In this document: positions 27,701 through 51,290 of the stretch, piece after piece
Layout of the letters: each line of letters begins with the position of its first letter
Numbering within the stretch: the first letter of the stretch is position 1
Assembly (NCBI GenBank): GCA_958009085.1
Contig: OY253672.1
Span: 62,001 to 126,000, forward strand
DNA from: Protoeuglena noctilucae
Lineage: Eukaryota
Direction: 5' to 3'
Length of the DNA stretch: 64,000 bases
Made by a program: the position numbers and the translations under genes
Notes under the pieces: model-generated
Database searches by the model: none
Seen by the model: only the letters and a program-made list of their open reading frames with translations
What the model was told of the DNA's origin: nothing

Positions 27701-28075
27701 CCCGCCGAGTCCCCATGGGCAGCCGACGCGGCCGGGGCCAAGGCCGGCGGCGGCGCGCCGGTGCTCGTGTCGTCCCCCGAGAGCCGAGTGAGGCTGGGCA
27801 AGAAGGTCCTGCAGAAGATCGAATCGCTGGCGCGGGCAGGTGCGGGGCGGGCGGACGCCGAGACGGGCCGCCCGGCATGCGTTTGCGGCGTGACTGAGGC
27901 GTCGCGCTGGCTGACGCGCAGGGAGGTCGACGGCGGGCGGACCGATCGAGCACGACGCGTCTCGGTCCTCGAGGGAGGCATGGCTGCTTTCAACGTGGCA
28001 CCCCGGCGCGGGGCCGACGGGTGGCAGCGGCGCGCACTTGCGGGGGCCGGCGTGACAAGGCAGCTAGCCAGCTAG
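24761..28075 (+). CDS. Hypothetical protein, many exons (could be two genes)
   Basis: Series of coding-like exons with GT/GC-AG boundaries (ETLAKAVEAEYYWR; FSAFTSYTSKFLFPF; LPLVLLSLRGTV...ISEVFDPQGYYS). No family recognised. Confidence 0.55.
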
Positions 28076-28124
28076 GAATGAAAATGGAAACGGTCAATGG
28101 ACGTCACGTTTGAATCGAAGCGGG

Positions 28125-30175
28125 TCAAATCGGCAGCGGGCACAGGCTGCTGCAGTCGGTGGCAAGGAGGTCCTCGATCATGTCGACGTCGAGGGGGAGC
28201 GGGCTGGGCAGGGTCTCCACCTCCCACGAGCCCATCCACTTCAACAGGCTAGAGTCATGGGGCTGGGGCAGGGGCGCTGAGAAAGGCAGCACTTGAACTG
28301 GCGTGTTGAGCGCCTCGATGCCTGCAGAAGACTCTGAAGACGGGCGTCGTGTGTTGGGGCTCGGCATCTCTGTGGTTTGCACACGCCTCTTCTTTGATAG
28401 GGGTCGCGAAACTGAATCGTCCGAGTCCAGCGTACGCTCTGTTGTGCGAGCCTGGGGCGAGTCTCGCTTTCCTGACTTGAGACGAAGAACAGCGCGGTGT
28501 AACCCAGATGTAGAATTGCAATCTTCTTGCGAGGAGAAAGACGATGTAGTCCCCAACGAAGATGATTTAGCACCGCTTTTTCCGTGGCGCCTCTTGAATA
28601 AGTCCTTGTATCCTGCTTGTCTAAGGTTTCTGCGCACAATAAGGAGCCCCTGACTGGTGGCAAGAATAAACTGCAAATCTCCGCTGCTGCAAAAGATAGA
28701 AGCGACCAAGGGTCACCTGAGGTCAGCGCCAAAGTCTTGATTGGGGTCTTCGTATATAGCCTTATATTTCCCCTCTAATCTGCGAGTAAAAGATGCTGAA
28801 ACTGTAATATATACAAATGCACATATGCAACTTATCCTGTTCCACTGCACCGTACCTCTGCTTCATGTCCTGCAAATGCTGATACGCAGCTCCCGTCTTG
28901 TATGCCTTTTGAAGTTCCTCGGATATTTGCTCGATTAAATTTCTAAGACTCATAAGCTTCCTGCGAGAAAAAATGATAGACGATGTTATAAAGATAAAGA
29001 AACTTCCCTCTGTGCTTTGGACAAATTTTTAATATTAAACTGTAAGGCCACCGAGGAACGTTTTCCTTGCGGCAAAATTTTTTCAGAACTGTAATACCGA
29101 CGCCCAAAATGGTCACCGCCTCTCCAATAGGGAGGTGATACAACGCGGCAATCCTCCCTTTGGTCTGCGAACATTATAACTCTTTACAGTGAAAGCGATA
29201 CAAATGTCTCTTTCAAGATGATGCTCGATTTATGTGCCTTACCAGAAAATTGCTGGCATCTTTACAGCGGCTCAATGATTCCGGAAGTGTCTTCCCATGC
29301 AGAGCATCGGTGCCGCACTCTAACGCACAATTGTTGTAGGGGTAGGTCATGAGCTCATTGTAATAGCCTGCAAAGGAAGATAATAATTATTTAAATCATT
29401 CCAGTATCTTTAATATTAAGAAGTGTATTTATCATTTGGGTTGACGTGGAGCTGCAACACAATTGACGCGTACCTTGTGGTGTGTGCTGTTCCGGTCGCA
29501 GGGGCGTCAGACACGTCAAATTTCGAAGAGCATGTTCTGCGTCATACACGAGCTTCGGAGTCTTGACAGGTCCGAGTAGAGCACTTGGTGAGTAAGCGTC
29601 AATCATGATGTCCCCCATCATCCTGCAGGTATAAAGAGAGGTAGCCGCTGGTTGTTTTTGAAAGAACTTTCTGAAAAACGTTGCGAAGGACATGTTTGAG
29701 CAGGCGGGTGAACACAACAGGGGAGTGAAGGCATTTGTGGGTTCGAAAACATCAGCGAGTGTTTGCCAAAAGGAAAATGTCGCAGACATTTTGCGATGCA
29801 CGTATTGTGGGCCTTGTTCTGTCGATCGTACATGTCAAGTCCCACAAATTAGCACTAAAAGTCTCGACCATCATAACAAACAGAGCGGCAAACGTGTAAA
29901 TTGGCGCAAAATTAGTCGCACCGAGGGTGGCAGGTGCAACCACATGGATAGATAAAGCGTTTTAATAAGGGTTTGTAAAATGTCTTATCTAGTTGATACC
30001 TCATTAAATCATTACACTGCACTCCCGTAAAGCGCGAGGAGGCAAAGCGCAAGCGCAAACGAAGCATTTGCAAAGGGGAGCCCGGGACGAGCCCAGCGGA
30101 GCCAAGGGCCACGTTGGAACGTCGCAATCGGTTGGCTGACGTGCCGATAAGAAGTGGTGTGCGTCACCTGGTCAT
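28125..30175 (-). CDS. RWP-RK transcription factor, RKD-like
   Basis: Spliced LTKGRIAALYHLPIGEAVTILGVGITVLKKFCRKENVPRWPYR|KLMSLRNLIE, followed by AIYEDPNQDFGADLRNLRQAGYKDLFKRR, resembling the RKD C-terminal motif. First micro-exon proposed at 30175-30168; alternative start at 29621. One donor (29039) is non-canonical. Confidence 0.85.
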
Positions 30176-30465
30176 GGCGGCCTCCGGGTGGCTCCACCGC
30201 GAGGCGGAAGGGTGCAGAAAGGGTTCGAGACCTTCTCTCTTCCAAACCTCGATCTTTGGCGACGGCAACCTCGTCCCCTGCCCCCTCTACCTCTAGCCGT
30301 CGAAGCTAATTTTCTTGTAGCAACAAGCGCAGAGACAGTCGCAACGAAGCTTTAAAAGCGGAGAGGACGCTTCTGTTCGACGCACTCTGCACTCGTGCCC
30401 CACTACACGCGACCCAAAGCAGCTGATAGCATGCGTCGTGACTTGCGATGAAAAAATGCCAAATA
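30015..30465. repeat. Left arm of a degenerate inverted repeat (putative promoter plus first exon of the RWP-RK gene)
   Basis: Reverse complement of about 31405-31842. Shared blocks include cactgcactccc, gggccacgttggaac, catggcggcctccgggtggctcc, aaagcggagaggacgc, gcactcgtgccccactaca and gtgacttgc. Confidence 0.9.
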
Positions 30466-31332
30466 TTTTTTTTTTTGGCCACTGAGGAAGTCAAGAGGCT
30501 AAGCGGCTAGGATACCCTAAAAAACCCTACCTGCCGAAAGGGAGGCGGAGAAGATGTGAAGATGAAGAATAGACCTAGGAAGGAGAAAATTAGGAGGGGA
30601 TAGGAGGAGCCGCATAGACCAAAACCAGCTGCAGATAAGAAGAGCCACACCCAGCCCAGCCCCTCAGCCCGGTTCCCCCGGGACGTCGCTTGGGGGGGGC
30701 GGCTGTGGAGGTGGAGGAACCCGACGGGGAGGGAAGGATGAGAAGAGGTCCGGAGTGACGGTGAAGGCCTTGAAGCAGAAGCAGCAGAGCCAGCCGGAAG
30801 CCACGACGGAAGGGAAGGCTCGTGGAGGTCTTGGATCATAGCCGCAGCCAGGGAGGCGAGGCGGTTATGGAAGGCTATGGCCGACGAGATCCTGTGGCCG
30901 GCGTAGGAGACGATGCGAGCGGCCCCTGCCCACGCTGGGGCATGGGGAGGGTCGAGAAGCAGCATGGGGTGCGCCTGGGAGCGGATGGCCCGTGCGCCAG
31001 TAGCGGCGGGCAGTGATGATGGCATGGAGAGTCTCAGATCAGAAAAGGCGCCAAGCGGGGGACTTGAGGAGCTCTGAGCTGGCATGGGCAGCGCCAAAGC
31101 GGAGGAGGAGCGCAGTAGGGGCGCCACGGTGATAATATATGCCATCTCCAAAATATAGGAAACGGGGCGAGGTAATGAAGCTAGTAAGGCGGTGGTGCTG
31201 CGTGGAAACAATATTAAGTTTAGAAGTACGGGAAATCCATGCCTGGCGGTGGGGGTAGCGGATGAGGGCTAGGTGGGTGAACTTGGGACCCCTGCGCTTG
31301 TCGTAAGCGGAGATGGCGAGGTGGCCAGGGCT
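30466..31332 (-). mobile_element. 5'-truncated, degenerate Penelope-like retroelement (Naiad/Chlamys-type), with a terminal A-run
   Basis: Minus-strand translation LAISAYDKRRGPKFTHLALIRYPHRQAWISRTSKLNIVSTQHHRL resembles the PLE RT thumb (YDKR..F...P...S.I....Q..R). It is frameshifted, ends in an A-run at 30466-30476 and is homologous to 50761-51290. Confidence 0.7.
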
Positions 31333-31404
31333 AAAAAAATTCGAATTGTCAGAGCCCTTGTGTCCATGCGGTTTAAGTATCGAACAACCTCCCGTTCAAA
31401 CGCT

Positions 31405-31842
31405 GCATATGGGCAGTGTTGCATTGCAAGTCACAGCGTGTGCTCTCAGCTGCTTTTGCGTCGCTTGTAGTGGGGCACGAGTGCTCCGTGCGTCTGGACG
31501 GAGCGTCCTCTCCGCTTTCGAAGCCTCGTCGCTGCTGTCGCTGCGCTCGTTGCTACGACGATCTTAGTTGCCTTGGATAGAGGGGTAGCGGGCAGGGGAA
31601 GTGGTTGCCGTCGCCGAAGGCCGCGGCTCGGAAGACAGAAGGACTCACACTCATTTCGCCGACTTCCGCCTCGCGCCGGAGCCACCCGGAGGCCGCCATG
31701 AGCAGGTGAGGCATTCTTGTTCACATAAGTGCGTCAGCGAACCTATTGCGGAGTTCCAACGTGGCCCTGGGCTCGCACGGGAACAGGTGCGAATGCCTCG
31801 CTTGCGCTTTGCGTCCTCTGCGCTTTGCGGGAGTGCAGTGTG
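31405..31842. repeat. Right arm of the degenerate inverted repeat (putative promoter plus first exon of the PKS)
   Basis: See left arm. Contains GCCGCCATGAGCAG|GTGAGG at 31692-31711. Confidence 0.9.
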
Positions 31843-34800
31843 CTGGGTTAGCTGAATGTCGACCAAATGAAAGGTTCGAGTGACCCATGTGAGGGTTGCA
31901 CATTGCTTGCCATCCCCAGTTTTAGTGATGTAACAAGTTTGCGACTGACCCTTCACACCTTCGTTGCTCTTTCGCTATGGTGGATGTTTAAAGTGCTAAT
32001 ATGTGGGGCTTTGCAATGTAGAGTCGACAGCATAGGGCGCACAATATGTGCAGCACTGATGCCATGCAAAAAGTAGTTGGAAGGATGTTGCACGTAAGTA
32101 TATAAGTCTTAAACGTATGTATGATAGATATGACAAATTCGCATTGTCCGTCTTTACAGGTCGCCATGTGACGAGGTCCTCTATGAGGACTATGAAACAT
32201 CACCGGACCAGGCAAGTCCGGCCATTGCTTTTGTTTGCACAATGTAAATAAACGCCAATAACCACTAAATTTCAAAAACTGAAATTGCAAAACAACCTCG
32301 CTGCAGATGAGCTTTGGAAGCGACACCTCATCTTTTGCACCGTGGGCAGTCGACCATGCTTCTGCAGATGTCATATTCGTCATAAGTGCGACTGCAAGCA
32401 AGTACCCCACCAATGTGGCAGTCGCAGGGCCCGACTGCAGTGCCATTGTCAGTCAAAACAGGTGGGATGTTGACACATGGTCGTTTGCAGGCCAAGTGCC
32501 GTTGAGATTTTCGAGCTTAATGGAAGGTGTGGAAATGTTTGACAACAACGCGTTTAGCATGTCTCAGCAAGAGGTGAGGCACATGGATCCCCAAGCTAGA
32601 CTTCTTCTCCAGCAGACAGCAGAAGTGTTTACTTTTAGTGGGCACTTGCGTCTGAAGTCTCTTGAGATTGGGGTGGTTGTAGGTACATATCAGGACGAGT
32701 ATGGCCCCACAGCAGCGAAAGCTTTGAGCATGACATCTTACGACGTCACAAACATGGTCACATGCCCGCAAGCAGGGCGAATTTCGTATTTCTTCGGCCT
32801 TAAAGGCTCATGCTGTACAGTTGATACAGCGTGCTCATCAGCCCTTGTGTCGGCAAACCTTGCCGTGTCCTCGCTGCAAAGCACCAACTCTCCAGCACAT
32901 GTTGTTGCATCTGTTAATTTAGTAATGCCCATCATGCAAGCCGCGTGCACTGTCGCTAATATGCTGAGTGCAGATGGACGCTCAAAGACATTGGACGCAG
33001 CAGCAGATGGATACGGGCGTGCTGAAGCATGCTTTGTTCATTTGTTTGAGAGCCAATTAATTGGTGACGGCACTGACAAGGCAATGGCAATTGTAATGGC
33101 TTCTCATGTCAATCAAGATGGCCGATCCAGCTCTCTCACGGCTCCTCATGGTCCATCTCAAGAGCGGCTTGTGGTAGACGCTATGATCAAGGCACGAGTC
33201 GGGCCGAATGATGTCGGCTACTATGAACTTCATGGCACTGGTAAGTGCTGCCACTCGCACATGTTAACAACGCATTGATGTCTTTTGGCTTGAGTAGTAT
33301 GCCCTTCTCGCTATGCAGGTACAGCTTTGGGCGACCCAATTGAGATCGGGGCGCTGACCAACAGCATGTGCAGGGAACAAGATGCTTCAACGCCGTTATA
33401 CATCAGTGCCACAAAATCGCACTTTGGGCACAGTGAGACAGCAGCAGGGTCTGTCGGTGTCGTTCAGGCAATCATGCACCTTGATATTCTCGGCTCCAGT
33501 GACATTTTACATCTGCGTTCTTTAAATAATATAATAACAAATGTAATAAATAAGTCATACAAAAACGGTGGCAGGTTTGTTACGGTGGGTAGAGAAGTTG
33601 GTCCAACACCATTGCATAACATGACATTTGCTGGTGTCAGTGGATTTGCTTTCCAAGGGACTTACGCGCACATCATCTTAGGCCGCTCGCCGGCCTCGTC
33701 GTGCGTCCTAACCAAAAGCATGTTGGCATGGGAGAATGCCTTTTTCTGGATGTTCCCTCCGACTCTTGCTCCTCTTTCGGCAGTGCAGGTTGCGTCAAAT
33801 CATATATATATATATATATATTTATATACGCTGCAAATGTAGTGGCATGGGTAGACTTTGCCAGTGAGTGTCTGTACCACGTAAACGTTGGTGCTAATTT
33901 ATCTCTCACAAACGCGGTAGAAGTAAAAGAACTAACAAATAAAAACCGTGTTGGCGATAGCAATGTCAGAATTCGCCTTAATGTGGATGATGGAAAGATA
34001 TTTGTTTCATGTGGCGATGCAACATTCGCTGAGGCAACAACATCAACCATGAATAACTGTGCACAGGAATGCAGGAGGTGTCCTTTAGTCAGCCTGTCGC
34101 GACAGACAGTTGTGACTCCAGCTTGCACTCTTGGCTGCGTGTTCCAAAGAAATGCTGATTTATCGCCTCTCCTTGCAACGTTGAGGTGCGCGACATCCAG
34201 TGTCGATACCACTCCATCTCCTTTGCAGCCTAACTACTCATTTTGGCACAGGCAACCGAATAGTCCCACGTGGGTGTCGCTTGAACATCAACGGAGTGCC
34301 GTGGTGGGCCGTGCCGCTACAGACAACAGCGAGCAATCATGTTGTTTTGTATTGGATCCCGCAAAGCTTTATTGTCATGCAGCACTCAGCAGCCCACTGA
34401 ATTTTAGGCTAGCATATGTTGAGGAGGTACAGGCATTCCAAAGCGCATCCTCGACGTTACCCACATACAGCAGCAACATTTTGTGCATAGAGGGTACAAA
34501 ATCATTCATTTACTGTCAAAAGTCTTACTATCTGTCTGTTTTACAAACTTTGATAACACAAGGTGTCAAGGATGTGAAATCAGTAGATAAAACATGTAGC
34601 TGCTTTGTGACCTGTCATGCAGCCCCACGTGATGACAACGTGGGTGCTCTATTTAGGGTTGCAAGATCAGAACGGGGATTGGAGCATTGGACTTCATACC
34701 AATCAAGTTTCCTTTCAAATATGGCTACTGTAAGGAGCAGCACCGATAACGACTGCATGTCCTTTTCAAACATATTATTTAACTCTTGCCTTACGGAAGC

Positions 34801-37800
34801 AAGGCACAATAAACGTGATGACAACACGCCCTCAAACGTTTTGATTGTGGGGGGCCTTGGTGGCATTGGAGGACTTTTCCGCACGTGGTTTGCAAAACAC
34901 GGCTGCAACTGTGTTCTACTAGGCCGCTCGGGGCGTGGAAAACTTGACCCTGTGCAGCATTATAGCAAGTCAATACGATGCGATATATCCAAGCTCAGTG
35001 AGTCGTACGCTCTCCGGCTTGGTTTAGAAGAAAAGCCGGATTGGATAATAAATTCTGGAGGTCTTCTTCAAGATGCAAGCATTATGCGACAAACGCCACG
35101 TCATCTGCGAAACGTCCTCGCTTCCAAAACCATAGGATCGGCAAACCTGACGTTCGCCAGTACTGCAGCTGCGGTATCATCTTTGTTACTGTTTTCATCT
35201 ATCAGTGGATATTTCGGGCTGCCTGGGCAAGCTAACTATTCCTACGCAAACGCGAACCTTGACAAAATGGCGCTCTCAAATAGGAATATGGGTTTCCAAA
35301 CAACAAGCGTTGCGTGGGGAGCATGGGCTGGAGCTGGCATGGCCGTGGCGGATGAAAAGATCGTTTCGCACCTCGCCGCCCTTGGCCTGGGAACGATAAG
35401 TCCAGAACAAGGCCTTTGTTTACTTGGATCCTCGCTGGTGATGCCGAGCAGCTATATCTTTTTCAGTCAAGTAAATTGGAGTTTGATCCTACAAAAACTT
35501 CCTTTGCTACAAAAAGCAATATCCATAGAAAGCAGTTCTAGACATGAAAATATAAGTGCATTACCTGATACTAGTTCGTCCTTAGCTGCTATCAAACCAA
35601 GAACTTTGTCTGAGAACAGTGTGACTTCGACTATTTTGCAAAGCGTCATGGATCTGTCAGGCTCGCCAGTGAACAGAGAATCATCGTTCCTGGACACAGG
35701 TTTGGATTCCCTTGCTGTCGTTGAGCTTGGTAAAATGATTTCCTCAGCTCTTGGGCTGGAAGTCTCAGTCACAGATTTATACGACTTCCCGACTCCAGAG
35801 ATGCTAGCCAAACATCTATTATCGGAAAACAATTCCTTGGATGGAAGTGTCAACGACAGCACCTTGCTAAGAAATCCATTTAACTATGTTTCAAGCAACG
35901 AACATGTCGTGAAGAGTGCTCAGCCTGCCAGCTTTATTAGCAAAGATAATGCCCAAATTGTTGAGGTGATAGGGTATGCGGGAACTATGCCCTCCCTTAG
36001 CTTGCTTGACCCTTTCGACGACGCAATTACCAAACAAAGTCGATGTGGAGCAACAGTGGAGGAAGACTTGGCCGACGTCCAAATTAACTTCATGTCTGCG
36101 ATTAACGACGTTGCTTCTTTTGACAATGCATTGTTTTCATTGTCAACAGCAGAAGCTGACATGACAGACCCTCAACAAAGAAAGCTGCTTGAGACAGCAT
36201 ATGTTCTTTTAATGGACAAGGGGAGCAGTGCTAAAGAAACATGCTCTCACTATGTCGGGGCGCAGCATATGGAGTACATCTTTATGCTCCCACAGAAATC
36301 TTTAACTGCACAATCAGCAACGAGTTTTCCTTTGAGCGTTGTTGCTGGTCGTATTGCTTTCGTATTTAACTTGCGAGGAGAAGCCGTTGCCGTTGATACA
36401 GCGTGCTCGTCTTCGCTAGTGGCTCTACAGCAAGCTTCGCAGAGCATGACTTTAATGGGCGAAGCCATTGTCTCCGGGGTTTCCATTATTAGTTCGCGAT
36501 TTACTACAAAAGTAACTCAGCTAGCTTCGATGCTGACCATGGACGGCCGGTGCAAGTCTTTGGATGCTGCCGCTGACGGCTATGTTCGGGCCGAGGCCTG
36601 CGTTGCGCTCGACCTGCGTACACGCCCCTCCTGCGAAGCGGAGTTGGAGCCAGCCAGTGGCCACGGGTTGGAGGGGCGAAGCGCGTTGGCTGTTTTGGGC
36701 ACTGCGGTCAATCAAGACGGTCGTTCGGCCTCTCTGACGGCACCAAATGGCCCCTCGCAGCAGCGTGTGATTCGGGCCGCGTTGGAGGCCGCGGCCCTTA
36801 TGCCTGGTGATGTTTCGCTGCTCGAGATGCATGGTACGGGGACGGCACTGGGAGATCCCATCGAAGTCGGAGCAGCCATGCAAGCGCTCTGTGGGGGGAC
36901 AGGAGCACGTGTACCTTCGGGGCGCATGCAGTTGACGGCCGCCAAGTCGCGCTTCGGCCACGCTGAGCCCGCAGCAGGAATGATTGGGCTTGTCAGCGGA
37001 GCATCCGTGTTGACAGGACTTTCGTTCAACGCCGTGACGCACTTGCGCCACGTGAACCCGTATGTGGCGGGGGCGTTGGGTGGCTCGGGCCGTCAGCCCG
37101 ACCGTGTCGTGGGAGTGGCGCGACAACCTGCCCCAGCAAGCGCTGGAAGCTCCCGCGGCCTCACCATGGGCGTCAGCGCATTCGCTTTCATGGGCACAAA
37201 CGCCCATGCTCTTGTGTCCAACTTAAAATCCGACGCCACGGCGCCGGCGGCACTTGTCTGTGGAAATGACATTCCTTGGAAAAAGCACGTGTCTTGGTAC
37301 GTGCCCCACGCGGGAACTTACGATGTTCTTCGTTACCCAGCAATATTGGCTGCCTCAAGCCAGAGCTTTGCTGCATCATTCCTCTGCTCTTTGAATGGAA
37401 TGTTAGCAAACCTGCTTAGTGAACACGTTGTGCAAGATAAGAAAGTTGTTCCAGGTTCTTTCACGTTGTCACTTCTGCAGGATGCTTGCAGGCTGCTTCA
37501 ACCTGTGCCAGGTCGAAATAATCACATGATACAAAATGTTGCCTTTTTTAAACCTGTCATTTTGTCCGACACAATAAATATGCAAATAAATGAAAACCGA
37601 CTTCAGCTATTAAACAAAACAAACTCTGTATACGCAGAAGGATTGGCAAATGTGCAACTAACCCAAAGAAAATATAAATCACCACCTTGTAACAAAACAC
37701 ATCTAGTTACAAAAGTAGCACTCTTTGCAACGAATGCAGTAGCCTCGTTAGCAAAGAAAGATGTAAGAAGTTTATGGAACAATGACATGAATCCAGCGTT

Positions 37801-40800
37801 GCTGGACTCTCTCTTCCAGTCCTCTTGGTCAGTGCAGCGTGCTGGTGAGAAAACTCTGGTGCCATCTTACGCGCTGTGCTTTTGGACTTCAAAAGAGCAC
37901 ATAACGGAGTTTATGCTTTCGGCCAAAGTCGTTTGTGAAAAGAATGCTCTTATTAGCTCCTTTTGCGTAGAATGTATGGAAAATGTTGTAGGCATTACCA
38001 GCGGACTAGTAGGAAAGGAAATCAAACTCAACAATGGAAAGATGTTACATGATTCCAACGCCTCAGCGTTACTGATGGCAGAGACAAGCTTTTGGGCGAC
38101 TCACGTCGCAGACAGTCCAAAAAGTTCTTCAGTGTTGTCTAAAAGTAAACACTTAACCGTGCAAGCTGGTGCTTGTATGATTACTTTACAGCACAATGTT
38201 TACTTCCAAAACAACACACCGTTTCATAATAACTTTACAGTTAACACTAGAAATGCATTTGATAGCGCTGCAAGATCTGCGCAGCGTGAACGGACGTCAA
38301 CAAAAACAGTCCCTGCCAACAATTGCGTCTCCTTACTCGTGCGCTTGAAAAGAAACTCTTTGGCTCTCTCCAATCCATCCGCACCGTTTACTGCAATTTC
38401 AGGAGGAACAAGCGGACTTGGGTCTTTAGTTTCCACGTTGGCTCTGAGGTGCGGCTCAGTACCCCTGTTGCTGTCCAGGACTGGGCAACTTCCTGAAATC
38501 AGCTTGCCGTCTTGCAGGGATATGTGCATGGTCGTGAAAAACGACGTGTCGATGAAAGAAAGTGCTCCTTTGCTTCGTGATCTTCATGCACGCTTTGCAT
38601 CTACGTTATCTTTTGTTCATGCTGGAGGCGTTTTAGCTGACGCGCTGCTTTCCAATCAAAATATATCCAAATATCGGTTAACCTCAGCACCAAAGTTGCA
38701 TGGACTTCAAAACGTCATAAATGTAGAATGCATTTGTTCGTTTGGATATGTCGTTGCGTTTTCGTCAATATCAGCATGGCTAGGGGGCATCGCTCAGGCC
38801 AACTACTCCATGGTCAATGCGATGATGGATAATATGTGCATCGACCTTCAAAACAATGGATTGGCAGCAACCAGCATTCAGTGGGGAGCGTGGGGCAGTG
38901 TAGGTGTTGCTGTTCAGGCATCTGGCACATTAATGAGGGCGGAAAAGGCGGGCTTGGGAATCATCAAGCCACAGGACGGGTTGCGAGCATTTTCAGAGGT
39001 AATAGCTCGTATAACCTATCCTGTTGTACTTTGCTCCCCTTTCAATCTACAGCGATTATCTCAAGAACTCCCTGATGACGCCGCAAGATTCGAAGCTAGT
39101 CAAGACAAGAAGCAACATAAAGTCGCTCAACAGGTACTCAAAAGAACGAAAGACTTCACTGAGGAGGTCAGGGCGCTGGCGGCCGGTCTGACCGGCGGCG
39201 AAGTGGCCGCGGACGAGCCCTTCATGGGGGCTGGAATGGACAGCCTCGGCGCCGTCGAGCTCCGAAATGTGCTCAGCCAGCGCTACAATGTGAGCCTCCC
39301 CGCAACGGTCATGTTCGACTACCCGACGGCGTCCGCCCTGGGGCTGTACCTGTCTGGCCTGCAGGAGGACGCGCCGGAGGGCCGGCACGATGAGCCGCGT
39401 GACGCGGTGGCCACGGCAGCGGCCCATGGCGGCCGCGCGGGCTTGCCGAGCCGCGAGGAGGTGTGCAAGCAGATCGTGGGCATCGTGGAGGGCATGCTGG
39501 GGCGCGAGGTAGACCCGTCGATGCCCTTCATGGAGGCGGGTCTTGACTCACTGGCGTCTGTGGAGCTGACGAACGCCGTGGCGGGCCGATTCCAGGTGTC
39601 CCTGGGGGCGACCGCCATGTTCGACCACCCAACCCCTTTGCAGCTTGCTCGTGGCATTGCAAGTCTTGCGCTACCAGCATCGGTTATGGACTTAGAACTT
39701 TCGCATGACTGTTGGAAACCCTCTTCTGTTTTTATCGTATCGGCTGTCTCAAATCTGCCAGCAGCTTCAGCGTGTTCATCTGATTCTGTTCAGGTAATTC
39801 CTTACTCACGCTGGGACTCAGAGGAGACAACGCTTCCTTTTAAAGGAATTTTACCGAAATTTGCAAGTCTCCTGAGCTGTCCTGGAGAATTTGATGTAGC
39901 GCTTTTTGGTTTGTCGTGGGCAGAGGCATCGATGATTGATCCTCAACATCGAGCAGTACTTGAGACTCTTCTATCCGTATCTGCGTCCTCTGGGACTACA
40001 AAAAAGGACTACGGCATTTACGTTGCTGTGCAGCAAATGGAGTATGGAAAGACTTTCCCTGCAATCCTCAGCAGCCCATACATAACGACAGGATCAAATT
40101 TGAGCGTTGCTGCAGGAAGAGCAGCCTATTTTTATGGCATGGAATCCGAGGCGGTTGCCATTGACACTGCTTGCTCATCGTCGCTTTCTGCAATACACCT
40201 TGCACGTCAAGCTGTAATGTCACAAAACAGTCCACGGTTTGTTGTTGGTGTCAACTATACTCTTTTACGGGAAACAAATGAAGGTGCTGCTTGGTCCTCA
40301 ATGCTGACCATGGACGGCCGGTGCAAGTCTTTGGATGCTGCCGCTGACGGCTATGTTCGGGCCGAGGCCTGCGTTGCGCTCGACCTGCGTACACGCCCCT
40401 CCTGCGAAGCGGAGTTGGAGCCAGCCAGTGGCCACGGGTTGGAGGGGCGAAGCGCGTTGGCTGTTTTGGGCACTGCGGTCAATCAAGACGGTCGTTCGGC
40501 CTCTCTGACGGCACCAAATGGCCCCTCGCAGCAGCGTGTGATTCGGGCCGCGTTGGAGGCCGCGGCCCTTATGCCTGGTGATGTTTCGCTGCTCGAGATG
40601 CATGGTACGGGGACGGCACTGGGAGATCCCATCGAAGTCGGAGCAGCCATGCAAGCGCTCTGTGGGGGGACAGGAGCACGTGTACCTTCGGGGCGCATGC
40701 AGTTGACGGCCGCCAAGTCGCGCTTCGGCCACGCTGAGCCCGCAGCAGGAATGATTGGGCTTGTCAGCGGAGCATCCGTGTTGACAGGACTTTCGTTCAA

Positions 40801-43800
40801 CGCCGTGACGCACTTGCGCCACGTGAACCCGTATGTGGCGGGGGCGTTGGGTGGCTCGGGCCGTCAGCCCGACCGTGTCGTGGGAGTGGCGCGACAACCT
40901 GCCCCAGCAAGCGCTGGAAGCTCCCGCGGCCTCACCATGGGCGTCAGCGCATTCGCTTTCATGGGCACAAATGCTCACATCTTGCTTTCGTGTGAAATTC
41001 CAAGCTCAGCAGCATGTCACGCAGACAGACTGTTACTCTTCCAACGCCAAAAATGCATGCCTGACCATGAGAAAAACTCGTTTATAGTCAAATGTATGTT
41101 TGAAAACATACCCTCAAAAGCCGTGAAGCTGTTTATTTCACTTTCACATCCAGCAAACGTGGACCTTAGAGAGCACGTCGTTGCTGGAAATGCAATTATG
41201 CCGGGTGTGGGAATGATGGAAGTGATGATGCTGGCCCAAACTCAGTGTCTAGAAATTGATAATACCAGCAAGTCGTTCTTGGCCCGTGTCATTGTCCCTG
41301 CCCCTCTTTTACTTGCACAAACTACTTCGTGCATTGTTAGGGCAAATTTGGACGACGGAAGCCTGTCTCTCGAATCCAAGAATTCTGTTGTGTTCTGTAG
41401 AGGCCAAATGTCGTGCCAAACGAACAAGAAGTCAAATGATAATAACAAGAATATAGAAGACATTGATGTGTTACATAGACGACGTTTATCAAAAACCACA
41501 GCTGGAGTGAGATTCCCAGGGACTGTAGGCAATGTCTACCCCTTGGTAACCAACGCTGGCAAATCTTCGCTTCATCCAGGAGTAATGGACAGTTGCATTC
41601 AGATCTTAACGGCGATCTCCCGTAATGACGACAAAAGTAATAAAGTTCCACTCGTTCCAATCGGCGCTTCCGCATTAATGCGATCCAATTTTAACCACGG
41701 TCAAATGGTTGCATCCGCGCAACCAGTTGATGCTGGCAACGTCCAGACGTCTAACCATGACATAATCGAAAATAACAGCAGACACGTCAGCTTCATTTTT
41801 GGCATGCAATTTAAACGGTTTGTGCAAAAGCTGTCAGCAAACAAACCAAAAGCGATCCACGACCTCGTTGCGAAACCCATGCATGGCCCCCGTGCGGTGG
41901 GGTTAGGGACGGAAAACCGTCTGACAGATGCTTTGCTCCACCCCGTCTCGCGTGTGTACGAGCCAGCCGCATGCCCTAATGACCGTCTCTCGGCCAGGCT
42001 GGCGCGAGCCGACGTAGTGGCGTGGAGCGTCAGCCAAGCAAGGAGCGCGGTCCGCTTAGACCTCTCGTCGTGGCCGGCAGCCACGTCGGGCAGCCTGGAC
42101 GCCCTGCACCGCATCGTCTCGCAGGGCTCCCATGTCGAGAGCCGGGACGGTGCCGTCGCCCACGTCACGGCAGGCCCATCGCCTCTTAATGGCATGACAG
42201 GGAACCTCGCTCGCCGTGCCGCTCTCTCAGGCATGCAGCGGGCTGCGGCGGCCGAAGCCGTTGCGTCCACTTGGCACCAGCGACCAGTGGCGGGGGCCGT
42301 GGTGGGTCGGGTGTCACTGTCATCAATGCAGACTGCTGGGCGGCTCCAGGCGTACGCGGAAGCGCGCAGCCGCGCGCCTGCGGCAGCGATCTCGGGCGGG
42401 ATGAGTGGGATCGGCCTGCTGACGGCGCAATGGCTGACGGGCTCGCTGACGAGGGGTCTCTTGCTCCTGGGCCGTTCGGTCCGACTGCCTGCCGGGTCGG
42501 CGGGACAGCTGCTGACTGGCCCCCACGTCATGGCCGTGGTCCGCTGCGATGTGGCGTCCATGGAGGAGACACGCGGGTGCTTGGTACAAGTCACAGCTGC
42601 GCATGGGCTGGGGAGCGCTGTGGAGGCGATGTTGCACTCGAGCGGAGTGCTGCGAGATGCGGTGCTGGTCAACCAGACGGTGGCGCAGATGCGGGAGGTC
42701 ATGGCGCCCAAGGTGGCGGGGGCCGTGCACATGCTCGAACAGGCCTCTGCGCTGGCTTTGGCCGGCTCCGCGCTCTTCTCTTCCATCGCGGCACTGCTGG
42801 GGAGCCCAGGCCAGGCAAACTACACCGGGGCGAACAGCGCGGTGGACGCTATGGCCTCCGAAGCCAAACAGCAAGGGCTGCCGATCTGCAGCGTGCAGTG
42901 GGGCGCATGGGCGGCAGTGGGCATGGCCGTCAACGAGGCGGGGACGCTGGCGCGGACGGAGGCGGCGGGTCTGGGTGTCGTGCGCCCGGCTCAGGGTCTG
43001 GCCATGCTCAGCGCGGTGCTGGATGCCAGCATGTCCGCCGACGCCACGGTGACGGCGACGCCATTCGACCGGGTCAAGCTGTCGCAGCGGTTCCCGGCGG
43101 TGTTGGAGCTGCTGGAGGGGTCCGAAGTTGTGAGAGGCGAACGCATGCAGGACAGCCGCACTGCCGTTGTTGCCCAGGGAAGCCGCACCGGGCATGCGCA
43201 CCGCTCGCGCAAATCGGTGGCGGTGCTGACTGAGGAGGTCAGGGCGCTGGCGGCCGGTCTGACCGGCGGCGAAGTGGCCGCGGACGAGCCCTTCATGGGG
43301 GCTGGAATGGACAGCCTCGGCGCCGTCGAGCTCCGAAATGTGCTCAGCCAGCGCTACAATGTGAGCCTCCCCGCAACGGTCATGTTCGACTACCCGACGG
43401 CGTCCGCCCTGGGGCTGTACCTGTCTGGCCTGCAGGAGGACGCGCCGGAGGGCCGGCACGATGAGCCGCGTGACGCGGTGGCCACGGCAGCGGCCCATGG
43501 CGGCCGCGCGGGCTTGCCGAGCCGCGAGGAGGTGTGCAAGCAGATCGTGGGCATCGTGGAGGGCATGCTGGGGCGCGAGGTAGACCCGTCGATGCCCTTC
43601 ATGGAGGCGGGTCTTGACTCACTGGCGTCTGTGGAGCTGATGAACGCCGTGGCGGGCCGATTCCAGGTGTCCCTGGGGGCGACCGCCATGTTCGACTACC
43701 CGACGGCGCTGGCGCTTGCTGACGTCGTGAGCAGGGAGCTTGGGGACGTGTCCAGGGTCGAGGACGTAATGCTGGCCCCCGTGGGATCACGGCCAGCTGA

Positions 43801-44634
43801 GGTGAGCAAAGATGTTTGGGTGGCGGCCATAAAATCCTTTTTTTGTCCTGCTGTATGTCCAGGGGGTTAAGCAGTGATTAGTACTATAAACTTGCTTGCA
43901 GGGACTAGATCCGAATGGTTCAAAGCATCGGCAACATGTTATCTTCACGTTTGTGAGCGACGAGGGTGGAGTACAGCTTGCCACAACCACTGTGCGGCGG
44001 TTCACAAGGGGTGAACTTGTAATTTTGCAACACAATAACGATATTACGAGTCCTGAGAGCGTCGCAAGCTGCGCTGACTTTGTTCAGCATGTGTGTGCGT
44101 CATCTCTTACGTATAGTATTGCTGCACATGGAGTCAAAGCCATCTTTGCCCGCGAAGTTGCCGAGGAAATTGTAAGACGCACGCGGAGGCAACCTGAATT
44201 CGTCGCTCTTGTCAACCCAAGGTGTGTAAAAGAGCATCGTTTAGTTGATGCACTTGTAAGCAATATCTTGCACCCAAACAGTTGCGACAATTTTTGGTGC
44301 GCAGGTTGGATTCCACCATCGGCTCGTTCTACGTACATAACGAGACAAGTTTAAATATCATTACCGCAAGATGTCAAGAAGCAGATGATAATTTCCAGGT
44401 GGGCAGAAAGTTAATGCTTGTTACAGTGTTTATATTATTTGTTTCTGCTTTTTGCCTTTTGCTTCTCTATTTCTTTAAAATAATCTTGAGTTTTTTTCTA
44501 AGCAGATGGGTACTTTTCGGACGTTGGACTTGGATAGTGAAACTGCATGCACACGTACTTCTAATTTGTGGCTTTTGGTTGCAGCAGCTTTTGCCATGTT
44601 TGCTGCAATTCTTATTGTGTCAATATGGCTGTAA
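31698..44634 (+). CDS. Multimodular type I polyketide synthase, AT-less: KS-(DH)-KR-ACP / KS-DH-KR-ACP-ACP / KS-DH-KR-ACP-ACP / TE-like / TM
   Basis: Three KS domains with DTACSS, HGTGT and GH(S/A)E(T/P)AAG; KR motifs GGLGGIG, GGTSGLG, GGMSGIG with catalytic Tyr; DH LREHVVAGNAIMPG; five ACP G(L/M)DSL motifs. Introns at 33241-33318 and near both ends; frame break at the (TA)n tract near 33810. Core 32307-43870 is firm; the terminal exons are inferred. Confidence 0.93.
36530..37200 (+). repeat. PKS internal repeat A, copy 1 (KS C-terminal half, 671 nt)
   Basis: Apparently identical to 40301-40971. Confidence 0.95.
39158..39625 (+). repeat. PKS internal repeat B, copy 1 (ACP-ACP, 468 nt)
   Basis: Near-identical to 43229-43696; one difference seen (ACG vs ATG). 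Confidence 0.95.
40301..40971 (+). repeat. PKS internal repeat A, copy 2
   Basis: Apparently identical to 36530-37200. Confidence 0.95.
43229..43696 (+). repeat. PKS internal repeat B, copy 2
   Basis: Near-identical to 39158-39625. Confidence 0.95.
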
Positions 44635-44931
44635 TTTTTGTGTTACATACCTGATAAGCAGGGAAATCCAACGGTGGTTGTTCACGCATATAATGTAATG
44701 CATTTCTTGGTTGAATCCGAACTTAAATAATGACACCATTCAGCCTGTATGTCCAGTCTCAGCCACGATAGCAATACTACTTTCAATCACAATTACGAAA
44801 CTGCATGACGCCCAGAAACCTGCCTTCAGCAGCTGGTGGCCATTGCGGCCCACGTTTGCATCGCAAGAAAAAAGAGACATGCAAGGGCGCTCAGGGCGCC
44901 GCTAGTCCACGACTGGGAGCTGTGCTTCCCC

Positions 44932-50753: not shown

Positions 50754-51290
50754 TTTTTTTGCCAATGAGAATTCAAAGAGATGACGTCGATGAGGGCACC
50801 CTCAAAACCCTACCCGCCAGAAGGCTACCCCGCTAGCGAGGCAAAAGAAAGAAGGAGGAAGGGAAGAAGAAGAAGATGGCCGCCGAGCTCACTGCGTTGG
50901 AGAGGAAAAACACAGTGTGAGGAAAAACAACCAACGAGCCCCTTAGCCCGGCTCAACAGGAAGACGACGGGGGGGCGGCGGCCTTGGAGGGGGGAAGGGA
51001 GCAAAGAGAGCCTGAGAGACAGAGAGAGCCTTGAAGTAGATGCCAGGTGGAAGGGAAGGATCATAGAGGTCCCGGAGCATAGAGGCCGTGACCGGAGAGC
51101 CGAGGCGGGCGTGGCAGGCAAGGGCAGAGGAGATCCTGTGGCTGGCGTAGGAGACGATGCGCGCGGCCCTGGCCCACGCTGGGGCATCGGGAGGGTCTAG
51201 GAGCAGCATGGGGGGTGCACCTGGGAGCGGATGGCCCGTGCGCCAGTAGCGGCGCGCGGTGATGAGGGCATGGAAAGGGTCGCTCAACAG
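50754..51290 (-). mobile_element. Second, shorter 3' fragment of the same Penelope-like family
   Basis: 51130-51274 closely matches 30886-31028; aaaaccctac is shared near the 3' end; A7 run at 50754-50760. Confidence 0.7.

Follow-up and report, generated by a model that had tools for sequence, protein, structure and literature searches.

Two divergent genes in a low-GC island

The window, that is, the whole 64-kb stretch of DNA analyzed, comes from a marine green alga of roughly 70% GC. Within it, a 17-kb low-GC island holds only two genes, an RWP-RK gene and a polyketide synthase (PKS) gene of type I, which are transcribed away from each other and are separated by a palindrome (Table 1). The ATGs of the two genes lie 2,686 nt apart; before an insertion at the center of the palindrome, the distance was about 1.8 kb. 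A Bud23-like neighbor gene showed 70 to 76% identity to diverse chlorophytes, with no close annotated relative.

The RWP-RK gene had been recognized from its letters alone, and this identity was borne out by a match to PF02042 in exon 29042-29164 (52 bits versus a gathering cutoff of 29.3; E = 6.7e-14). The introns inferred in this gene measure roughly 30 to 105 nt. Three start codons come into question: ATG 29621, which directly follows a strong acceptor at 29623, and the in-frame ATGs 29693 and 29789, which involve no 5′ intron. Because the strong acceptor directly precedes ATG 29621, some 5′ intron is plausible for this gene. The reading frame stays open for 71 more codons upstream of the MMGD start; an open stretch of this length has a P value of 0.043 per frame, a second frame is open as well, and the stretch was given no weight. 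When the 105-amino-acid (aa) N-terminal open reading frame (ORF) was searched against 1.84 billion protein representatives, it matched only its own unspliced ORF, so that neither the MMGD start nor the upstream extension can be checked by conservation.

The assignment of the second gene as a modular type I PKS likewise held, with PF00109, PF02801, PF00550, PF08659, and PF21089 found in one reading frame; no acyltransferase (AT) domain was among the PKS Pfam matches listed. KS1 begins about 12 residues past ATG 32307, and an in-frame stop codon lies 8 codons upstream of this ATG. A protein search with the PKS N terminus returned a closest match of 40% (Bathycoccus), among proteins of 567 to 2,000 aa. 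An internal PKS region matched one ORF at 100%, which came from an ENA contig; since this ORF was called bacterial-style, it is uninformative about a spliced PKS N terminus. Near-identical repeats persist within the PKS gene.

Further possible 5′ elements lie between the palindrome and the PKS start. When codon usage learned from the PKS was used to score the putative small exon listed in Table 1, the frames of short exons, this one included, were not separated, and the score was given no weight. A GTAAGT that the earlier note had placed at 32093 starts one nucleotide further on and overlaps TATATAAG; we take the two to be a GTAAGT motif and a TATA-like motif. The border of a further 5′ exon could lie at this site, or a proximal promoter.

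Table 1. Features of the RWP-RK/PKS intergenic region and its flanking genes (positions in the window; a slash marks an exon/intron border)
Feature	Position	Strand	Details
RWP-RK gene	28125-29789	-	Stop codon TGA 28127-28125; exon model inferred by eye
Left arm	29797-30460		664 nt, from alignment; core 30014-30460, 58.6% GC; outer part 29797-30013, 41.5% GC
Best-conserved block, left arm	30164-30195	-	ATG 30175-30173, GT 30167-30166; unspliced ATG ACC AGG TGA
Nested multi-copy insertion	30465-31333	-	From T11 at left end, depth, and second copy
Original inter-arm spacer	31348-31411		64 nt; 78 nt if counted from 31334
Right arm	31412-32052		641 nt, from alignment; core 31412-31841, 61.9% GC; outer part 31842-32052, 47.4% GC
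Best-conserved block, right arm	31678-31709	+	Exact run of 24 nt up to and including ATGA, followed by GCAGGTGA; ATG 31698-31700, GT 31706-31707; unspliced ATG AGC AGG TGA
GTAAGT overlapping presumed TATA-like motif	32094-32106	+	GTAAGT 32094-32099, TATA-like TATATAAG 32099-32106; just outside the right arm
Candidate small 5′ exon (earlier note)	32160-32211	+	Putative; acceptor tctttacag/G, donor CAG/GCAAGT
Type I polyketide synthase gene	32307-43870	+	KS, ACP, KR, and DH domains

The intergenic region is an old inverted duplication

The stretches 30015-30465 and 31405-31842 had been described as diverged inverted copies of each other, and BLASTN recovered them as 30014-30460 versus 31841-31412 with 75.6% identity over 450 columns (E = 1.3e-83). 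Ungapped extension of this core match covered 320 nt at 77%, and a MAFFT alignment of the core gave 77.8% identity over 428 ungapped columns. Weaker similarity had been thought to extend to about 29920 and 31915. This outer homology is real; its limits, 29797 and 32052, are further out than had been assumed. For the outer block 29797-29900 versus 31952-32052, the score was 39, compared to an average of 9.1 for shuffled sequences, and 0 of 300 shuffles reached it. Beyond 29797 and 32052, as many as 194 of 300 shuffles did as well as the real sequences, so that the likeness there is no better than chance. The two arms, 29797-30460 and 31412-32052, are significant reverse-complement copies with defined ends, which are sharp and near-symmetric. 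Comparison over their full length showed 447 identical columns among 670 and a Jukes-Cantor distance of 0.38 (635 ungapped columns). The spacer left after removal of the central insertion, previously put at about 70 nt, was found to be 64 to 78 nt long. In the whole 64-kb window, this palindrome is the only inverted repeat of at least 60 nt.

Mismatches in the core are spread evenly over codon positions (32/32/31), and 41 of 95 are transitions. The arms thus diverged as noncoding DNA. Identity is uneven along the arms, with the observed variance being reached by 0 of 5,000 permutations for the full arms and by 4 of 5,000 for the core; part of this unevenness is owed to windows with indels. Rfam and tRNA scans detected neither Rfam families nor tRNAs in the region.

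The copy number of the arms was judged from the 64-kb window and, at a likeness of at least 90%, from contigs belonging to one DNA-like run. BLASTN found no further arm copy elsewhere in the window, and no other contig of at least 90% likeness fell on either arm in the DNA-like run. Depth was flat over the arms (110.2 and 346.2), each value being that of one single contig. At this likeness in the DNA-like run, the arms showed no sign of being the high-copy MITE that the earlier note had named as a refuting case. No match to the 24-nt core was found either in viral contigs or in the genome contigs of prokaryotes. Six metagenome-contig loci retrieved with a 20-nt core pattern were rejected as relatives of the arms, as they match over 20 to 44 nt only, which is expected by chance. 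None of 28 pattern matches from a protein-guided scan of genome contigs was confirmed.

A probably younger repeat is nested at the center of the palindrome

The center of the palindrome is occupied by a repeat that had been taken for a retroelement. Its multi-copy nature was confirmed: depth in the DNA-like contigs rose to 1,135 over the repeat, compared to 110 to 346 in the flanks, the contigs break at the repeat, and the window contains another copy at 50937-51277. No reverse transcriptase or other domain was detected, as its 253-aa ORF had neither a Pfam match nor a usable Atlas match. A retroelement nevertheless remains a plausible identity. Read on the minus strand, the T11 run at 30466-30476 would correspond to a poly(A) tail, and the insertion is flanked by AAAAAATGCCAA and AAAAAATTCGAA, which match at 10 of 12 positions. 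The poly(A) tail, the target duplication, and the multiple copies are the features that the element has in common with non-LTR retroposons and retrocopies, from which it differs by having no detectable reverse transcriptase or endonuclease ORF. They favor a non-LTR retroposon with moderate support only, since the target duplication is degenerate and A-rich. Because the insertion is unduplicated and central, we infer that it is younger than the palindrome.

Marine metatranscriptome contigs from three runs were examined over 28000-34000. They fell only on 28000-28124, on 28495-28644, and on parts of the nested repeat, where at least one of them continues like the copy at 51.3 kb. One of the three runs gave no contigs there, and coverage did not extend to the arms, to the proposed exons with their junctions 30168>29622 and 31705>32160, or to PKS exon 1; such missing coverage is no argument against their transcription. 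A joint at 30529>30601, which skips 71 nt within the nested repeat, was rejected as a splice junction; the DNA-like contigs show the same joint, which is thus a copy variant.

An ATG and a GT are retained in both arms

The motif GGAGGCCGCCATGA(C/G)CAGGTGA, which the earlier note had pointed out in both arms, was found at the expected places, with a GT located 5 nt after the ATG in each arm (Table 1). The longest exact run between the arms (24 nt; P = 0.07 by shuffling) is located at this block, the best 33-column window between the arms has 31 matches (P = 0.22 by shuffling), and the best 50-column window (45 of 50 matches; 0.90) holds the block as well. No other stretch of the arms is as well conserved as the ATG/GT block, yet this conservation does not significantly exceed chance. 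Splice signals are available, namely, the donors CAG/GTGACG and CAG/GTGAGG and AG acceptors, and the joins that had been proposed from them do give open, in-frame readings into MMGD... of the RWP-RK protein and MSFG... of the PKS. An unspliced leader begun inside the right arm would contain about 20 upstream ATGs before 32307, so that splicing would be needed if transcription starts in the arms.

The arms most likely represent noncoding 5′-flanking DNA

The reading that we prefer, with a probability of about 0.6, is that of an old noncoding inverted duplication in the shared 5′ intergenic region, with each gene starting at its own ATG. The duplication would have arisen with the short spacer between the minus-strand RWP-RK gene and the plus-strand PKS gene, and the retroposon-like repeat would have entered its center later. 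As the arms flank both 5′ ends, the two genes sit behind homologous upstream sequence, which today would serve as 5′-flanking DNA of both, possibly as promoter or leader. Each gene has an ATG at its first large downstream exon, and translation most likely starts at 29621, 29693, or 29789 for the RWP-RK gene and at 32307 for the PKS gene. The ATG and GT kept in the arms would then either have survived by chance within a GC-rich block or, should they be transcribed, form an upstream ORF of three codons. Several observations speak against this reading: the ATG/GT block is the best conserved of all, identity is uneven along the arms, both proposed joins are in frame and have consensus-like CAG/GTGA donors, a strong acceptor precedes ATG 29621, and an unspliced leader would carry many upstream ATGs. 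The RWP-RK exon model, drawn by eye, also has a CAG/GTGACC donor.

The solid, more modest result is an old palindrome with well-defined limits, located between two divergent genes in a small low-GC island. It is useful for annotating both gene starts and is a further example of the structural turnover that PKS loci of algae show in their surroundings. Fold-back palindromes form by replication or repair errors. The locus resembles them in its inverted arms, its short spacer, and its single-copy, local structure; it differs in being old, with no sign of homogenization of the arms. It also resembles head-to-head gene pairs with a shared bidirectional intergenic region, as the genes lie on opposite strands with facing 5′ ends. 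Here, however, the DNA between the genes is an inverted duplication in its own right, and each gene faces a homologous copy in place of the one core promoter that such pairs share.

Alternative origins and functions

Among the alternatives, a decayed long-TIR DNA transposon (a nonautonomous Mutator-like or foldback element) is the best surviving one, although we regard it as unlikely. Its terminal inverted repeats would be represented by the arms, which might carry outward-reading promoters like those in the terminal repeats of Mu, and the element would have inserted between the two genes. This alternative concerns the origin of the arms and is compatible with the preferred reading of their present function. 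Two long inverted arms with sharp outer ends and a very short interior would fit such an element, and a candidate 9-nt direct repeat, TGCGATGCA/TGCCATGCA (8 of 9 matching), is found near the ends. This repeat, however, overlaps the end of the left arm and sits 8 nt past the end of the right arm, and by our estimate, the 1,369 position pairs tried would yield about 0.15 matches of this kind by chance. The absence of further arm copies and of core matches longer than 44 nt in the searches described above also argues against a transposon. No transposase domain was detected in the 133 window ORFs of at least 190 aa outside the PKS or in 12 island ORFs; a nonautonomous TIR element would need no transposase. 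One preprint describes other marine algae in which giant PKS genes, located in low-GC regions, have Mutator-like elements beside them (10.1101/2025.04.21.649811). Like the long-TIR elements of marine picoalgae in that preprint, the long inverted arms lie in a low-GC island, where a type I PKS follows directly downstream of them. The palindrome nevertheless lacks a convincing target-site duplication and, in the searches described here, further copies and a transposase, and its arms of about 650 nt have only about 70 nt between them.

The twin-leader arrangement that the earlier note had put forward appears quite improbable. Each arm would supply a promoter together with a first exon of 8 nt, ATGA(C/G)CAG, spliced in frame to its gene, and the two genes would be co-regulated. 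The RWP-RK exon would be joined at 29622, and the PKS exon would be joined via 32160-32211 and then, across a GC-AG intron, to 32307. The arrangement would explain why an ATG in GCCGCC context followed by CAG/GTGA is kept in both arms inside the longest exact run, it would use good acceptors at 29623 and 32159, and it would relieve the leader of its many upstream ATGs. That both joins keep the frame and contain no stop codon is weak evidence, because the right path was hand-picked from several alternatives and the left join would be in frame by chance in about one-third of cases. This right path passes through one more exon, of 52 nt, and uses a GC donor, both chosen by eye. The first introns, at 545 and 454 nt, are as unusually long as had been noted, compared to those of the RWP-RK gene, and rival donors are at hand, e.g., CAT/GTACGA at 29831 and the GTAAGT at 32094. 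Block conservation within chance and the ATG that each gene possesses also weigh against the shared first exon. If it were true, this would be a rare case in which a structural duplication provided a common promoter and start codon to two unrelated genes, and a gamete or developmental regulator would be tied to secondary metabolism in a marine alga. The broader proposal, that homologous promoters and the same 8-nt start exon co-regulate an RWP-RK regulator and a giant PKS in a recombination-poor, low-GC island, is slightly more doubtful still; in it, the RWP-RK protein would be of the sex or development type and the island possibly mating-type-like.

It is very unlikely that transcription from the arm cores yields twin upstream ORFs, in which ATG-xxx-AGG-TGA would act as a three-codon ORF damping the translation of both genes: ATG, AGG, and TGA are in phase in both arms and only the second codon differs (ACC versus AGC), but this conservation does not exceed chance and many more upstream ATGs follow downstream in the outer arms. 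With such upstream ORFs, splicing of the leader may take a different route.

A low-GC island holds a divergent RWP-RK and PKS gene pair

The window comes from the nuclear genome of a green alga. It codes for the C-terminus of a dynein heavy chain, a WRKY domain, WD40 proteins, a Bud23-like methyltransferase, and other products of this kind. A search with the Bud23-like ORF found proteins from a range of chlorophytes at 70 to 76% identity and no annotated close relative. A marine metatranscriptome was among the runs containing the locus. The GC content is ~65 to 78%, except in an island at ~28.1 to 44.9 kb with 45 to 58% GC. This 17-kb island (28100 to 44900; ~70% GC on either side) contains only two genes, an RWP-RK gene and a type I PKS gene, which are divergently oriented and separated by 2,686 nt. 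In Mamiellales, outlier regions of low GC are reported to contain RWP-RK mating-type candidates as well as giant PKS genes, and Mutator-like elements often lie beside the PKS genes (10.1101/2025.04.21.649811). The island resembles, in miniature, those regions with their RWP-RK and giant PKS genes. The terms "inverted repeat" and "palindrom" are both absent from the main text of that preprint; we do not claim that the palindrome described below is unpublished.

Features of the two island genes
Feature	Position	Strand	Evidence
RWP-RK gene, domain exon	29042-29164	minus	PF02042, 52 bits, E 6.7e-14
RWP-RK gene, stop codon	28127-28125	minus	Exon model
Type I PKS (KS, ACP, KR, DH domains)		plus	Domain matches

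A single RNA run contained part of the locus, with contigs on 28000 to 28124, on 28495 to 28644, and on a repeat nested in the palindrome; none of its contigs reached the palindrome arms, the exons proposed in the earlier note, or their junctions. The contig on 28495 to 28644 corresponds to the last RWP-RK exon at 100% identity. The contig on 28000 to 28124 derives from the adjoining plus-strand gene and ends in a poly(A) tail past 28124. This poly(A) end directly abuts the RWP-RK stop codon, and the two genes converge with zero spacer. The RWP-RK motif is interrupted by an intron at 28961 to 29041 (minus strand). An RWPY-RK reading requires borders one base off GT..AG (GT..CA or TT..AG), and the canonical GT-AG choice leads to a stop after three codons; this could reflect a noncanonical intron, a sequence error, or a mismodelled exon. 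The exon model also requires a candidate intron of ~30 nt at 28711 to 28740 (minus strand; gtgacc...ttgcag), which is unusually short. Among 1.84 billion representatives, the N-terminal RWP-RK ORF matched only its own unspliced ORF (P0241).

The intergenic region is a diverged palindrome

The earlier note had described diverged inverted copies at 30015 to 30465 and 31405 to 31842, with weaker similarity to ~29920 and ~31915. BLASTN aligned 30014 to 30460 with 31841 to 31412 at 75.6% identity over 450 columns (E 1.3e-83), bearing out this core, which showed 77.8% identity across 428 ungapped columns and included an ungapped stretch of 320 nt (77%). Homology runs beyond the outer limits given in the note and reaches 29797 and 32052. 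An outer block (29797 to 29900 versus 31952 to 32052) had a score of 39, equalled in 0 of 300 shuffles, and is joined to the core homology by an AT-rich stretch that is hard to align. Past 29797 and 32052, similarity fell to chance level (best local score equalled in 194 of 300 shuffles); the arms therefore measure 664 and 641 nt. Over their full length, 447 of 670 columns are identical (Jukes-Cantor distance, 0.38). No other inverted repeat of at least 60 nt was found in the 64 kb.

The arms are separated by a GC-rich segment (~30465 to 31333). Contigs of sequencing run X5, which we take to be a DNA run because they are colinear with the unspliced genome, break within this insert, where their summed depth rises to 1135 compared to 110 and 346 in the flanking contigs. 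A second partial copy of its core lies at 50937 to 51277 (84% identity) in a GC-rich part of the window; at least one RNA contig over the nested repeat continues like that copy. A T11 run opens the insert, and a degenerate repeat (10 of 12 positions matching) lies on its two sides, which fits a retroposed minus-strand sequence. The insert is a multicopy repeat, and its removal leaves a spacer of 64 to 78 nt between the arms, in line with the ~70 nt of the earlier note. Domain and protein searches of the insert found no reverse transcriptase or other domain; a retroelement, as proposed, is plausible. As the insert itself is not duplicated, it probably arrived later than the duplication.

Proposed leader splicing and the shared ATG/donor block

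Each arm was proposed to supply a start-codon micro-exon to its gene, and the underlying motif is present in both: they share GGAGCCACCCGGAGGCCGCCATGA, then a single mismatched position, then CAGGTGA. The GGAGCCACCCGGAGGCCGCCATGA stretch is the longest exact run between the arms (24 nt), surrounded by their best 50-column window (0.90). When the core matches were shuffled, 7% of trials produced a run of this length, and 22% produced an equally good 33-column window. Identity varies along the arms more than expected by chance (full arms, 0 of 5,000 permutations; core, 4 of 5,000), and much of this unevenness is owed to indel-rich windows. Within the arms, the block is therefore the leading candidate for constraint, although its conservation was not significant in these shuffles. 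Read without splicing, each copy is a three-codon ORF, ATG-xxx-AGG-TGA.

Some kind of 5′ splicing is favored by a strong acceptor immediately preceding ATG 29621 of the RWP-RK gene and, on the PKS side, by the ~20 upstream ATGs that a long unspliced leader would contain. Alternative donor candidates are CAT|GTACGA at 29831 and GTAAGT at 32094, and a TATA-like TATATAAG lies immediately beyond the right arm (32099 to 32106). A shared, spliced start-codon micro-exon for both genes is unsupported and, in our estimation, quite improbable. The arithmetic of the proposed joins is right: the left one places M-T-R in frame before MMGD, and the right one runs via 32160 to 32211 and a GC-AG intron in frame into MSFG. 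These joins carry little weight, since the left had a 1-in-3 chance of an in-frame outcome and the right path was put together from several possible exons. The leader introns would span 545 and 454 nt, compared to ~30 to 105 nt for the introns inferred in the RWP-RK exon model. In both genes, the downstream exon opens with an ATG of its own. In the PKS gene, an in-frame stop lies 8 codons upstream of this ATG, and KS1 starts ~12 residues in. Upstream of its ATG, the RWP-RK frame remains open for 71 codons and contains further ATGs at 29693 and at 29789, the latter at the outer end of the left arm; so long an open frame is only mildly unexpected (P = 0.043), and one other frame is also open.

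Nature and origin of the arms

The 95 core mismatches are spread 32/32/31 across the three phases and include 41 transitions; by this pattern, the arms did not diverge in the manner of protein-coding sequence. The arm region had no match in Rfam (E up to 1) and none by ARAGORN. X5 depth on each arm equals that of its one spanning contig, no other X5 contig was at least 90% alike on either arm, and no further arm copy was found within the window; therefore, the arms are not a young high-copy MITE, which would have undermined the proposed leader. Searches with the exact core yielded six matches among metagenome contigs, all attributable to chance; neither viral contigs nor prokaryote genome contigs yielded any. 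Older, diverged copies may exist elsewhere in the genome. The best candidate for a target-site duplication flanking the palindrome (8 of 9 positions matching) was sited off the ends, with ~0.15 expected by chance, and is not convincing. No transposase was found in the window.

The palindrome is explained most economically as an old inverted duplication of local origin or as a long-TIR element with a lost family. It occupies the divergent 5′ region common to the RWP-RK and PKS genes, and the retroposed repeat would later have inserted into it. Both genes now lie behind homologous flanking DNA. Promoter or leader elements may well be present in this DNA, and there the idea of a twin leader is reasonable.

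Variation in the PKS gene

Relatives of the PKS comprised one strain-level ORF with 98% identity and a different module arrangement; the others had at most 40% identity. The former, P0121 from an ENA contig (cluster member P0242), matched 33800 to 39715 at 98% and then jumped to 42374 to 43867 at 62%, and a related strain therefore appears to have a PKS whose modules are arranged differently. Two pairs of direct repeats lie within the PKS gene, 36527 to 37200 with 40298 to 40971 (99.85% over 674 nt) and 39158 to 39630 with 43229 to 43701 (99.6% over 473 nt). These near-identical repeats suggest that modules were recently duplicated or underwent gene conversion with one another.
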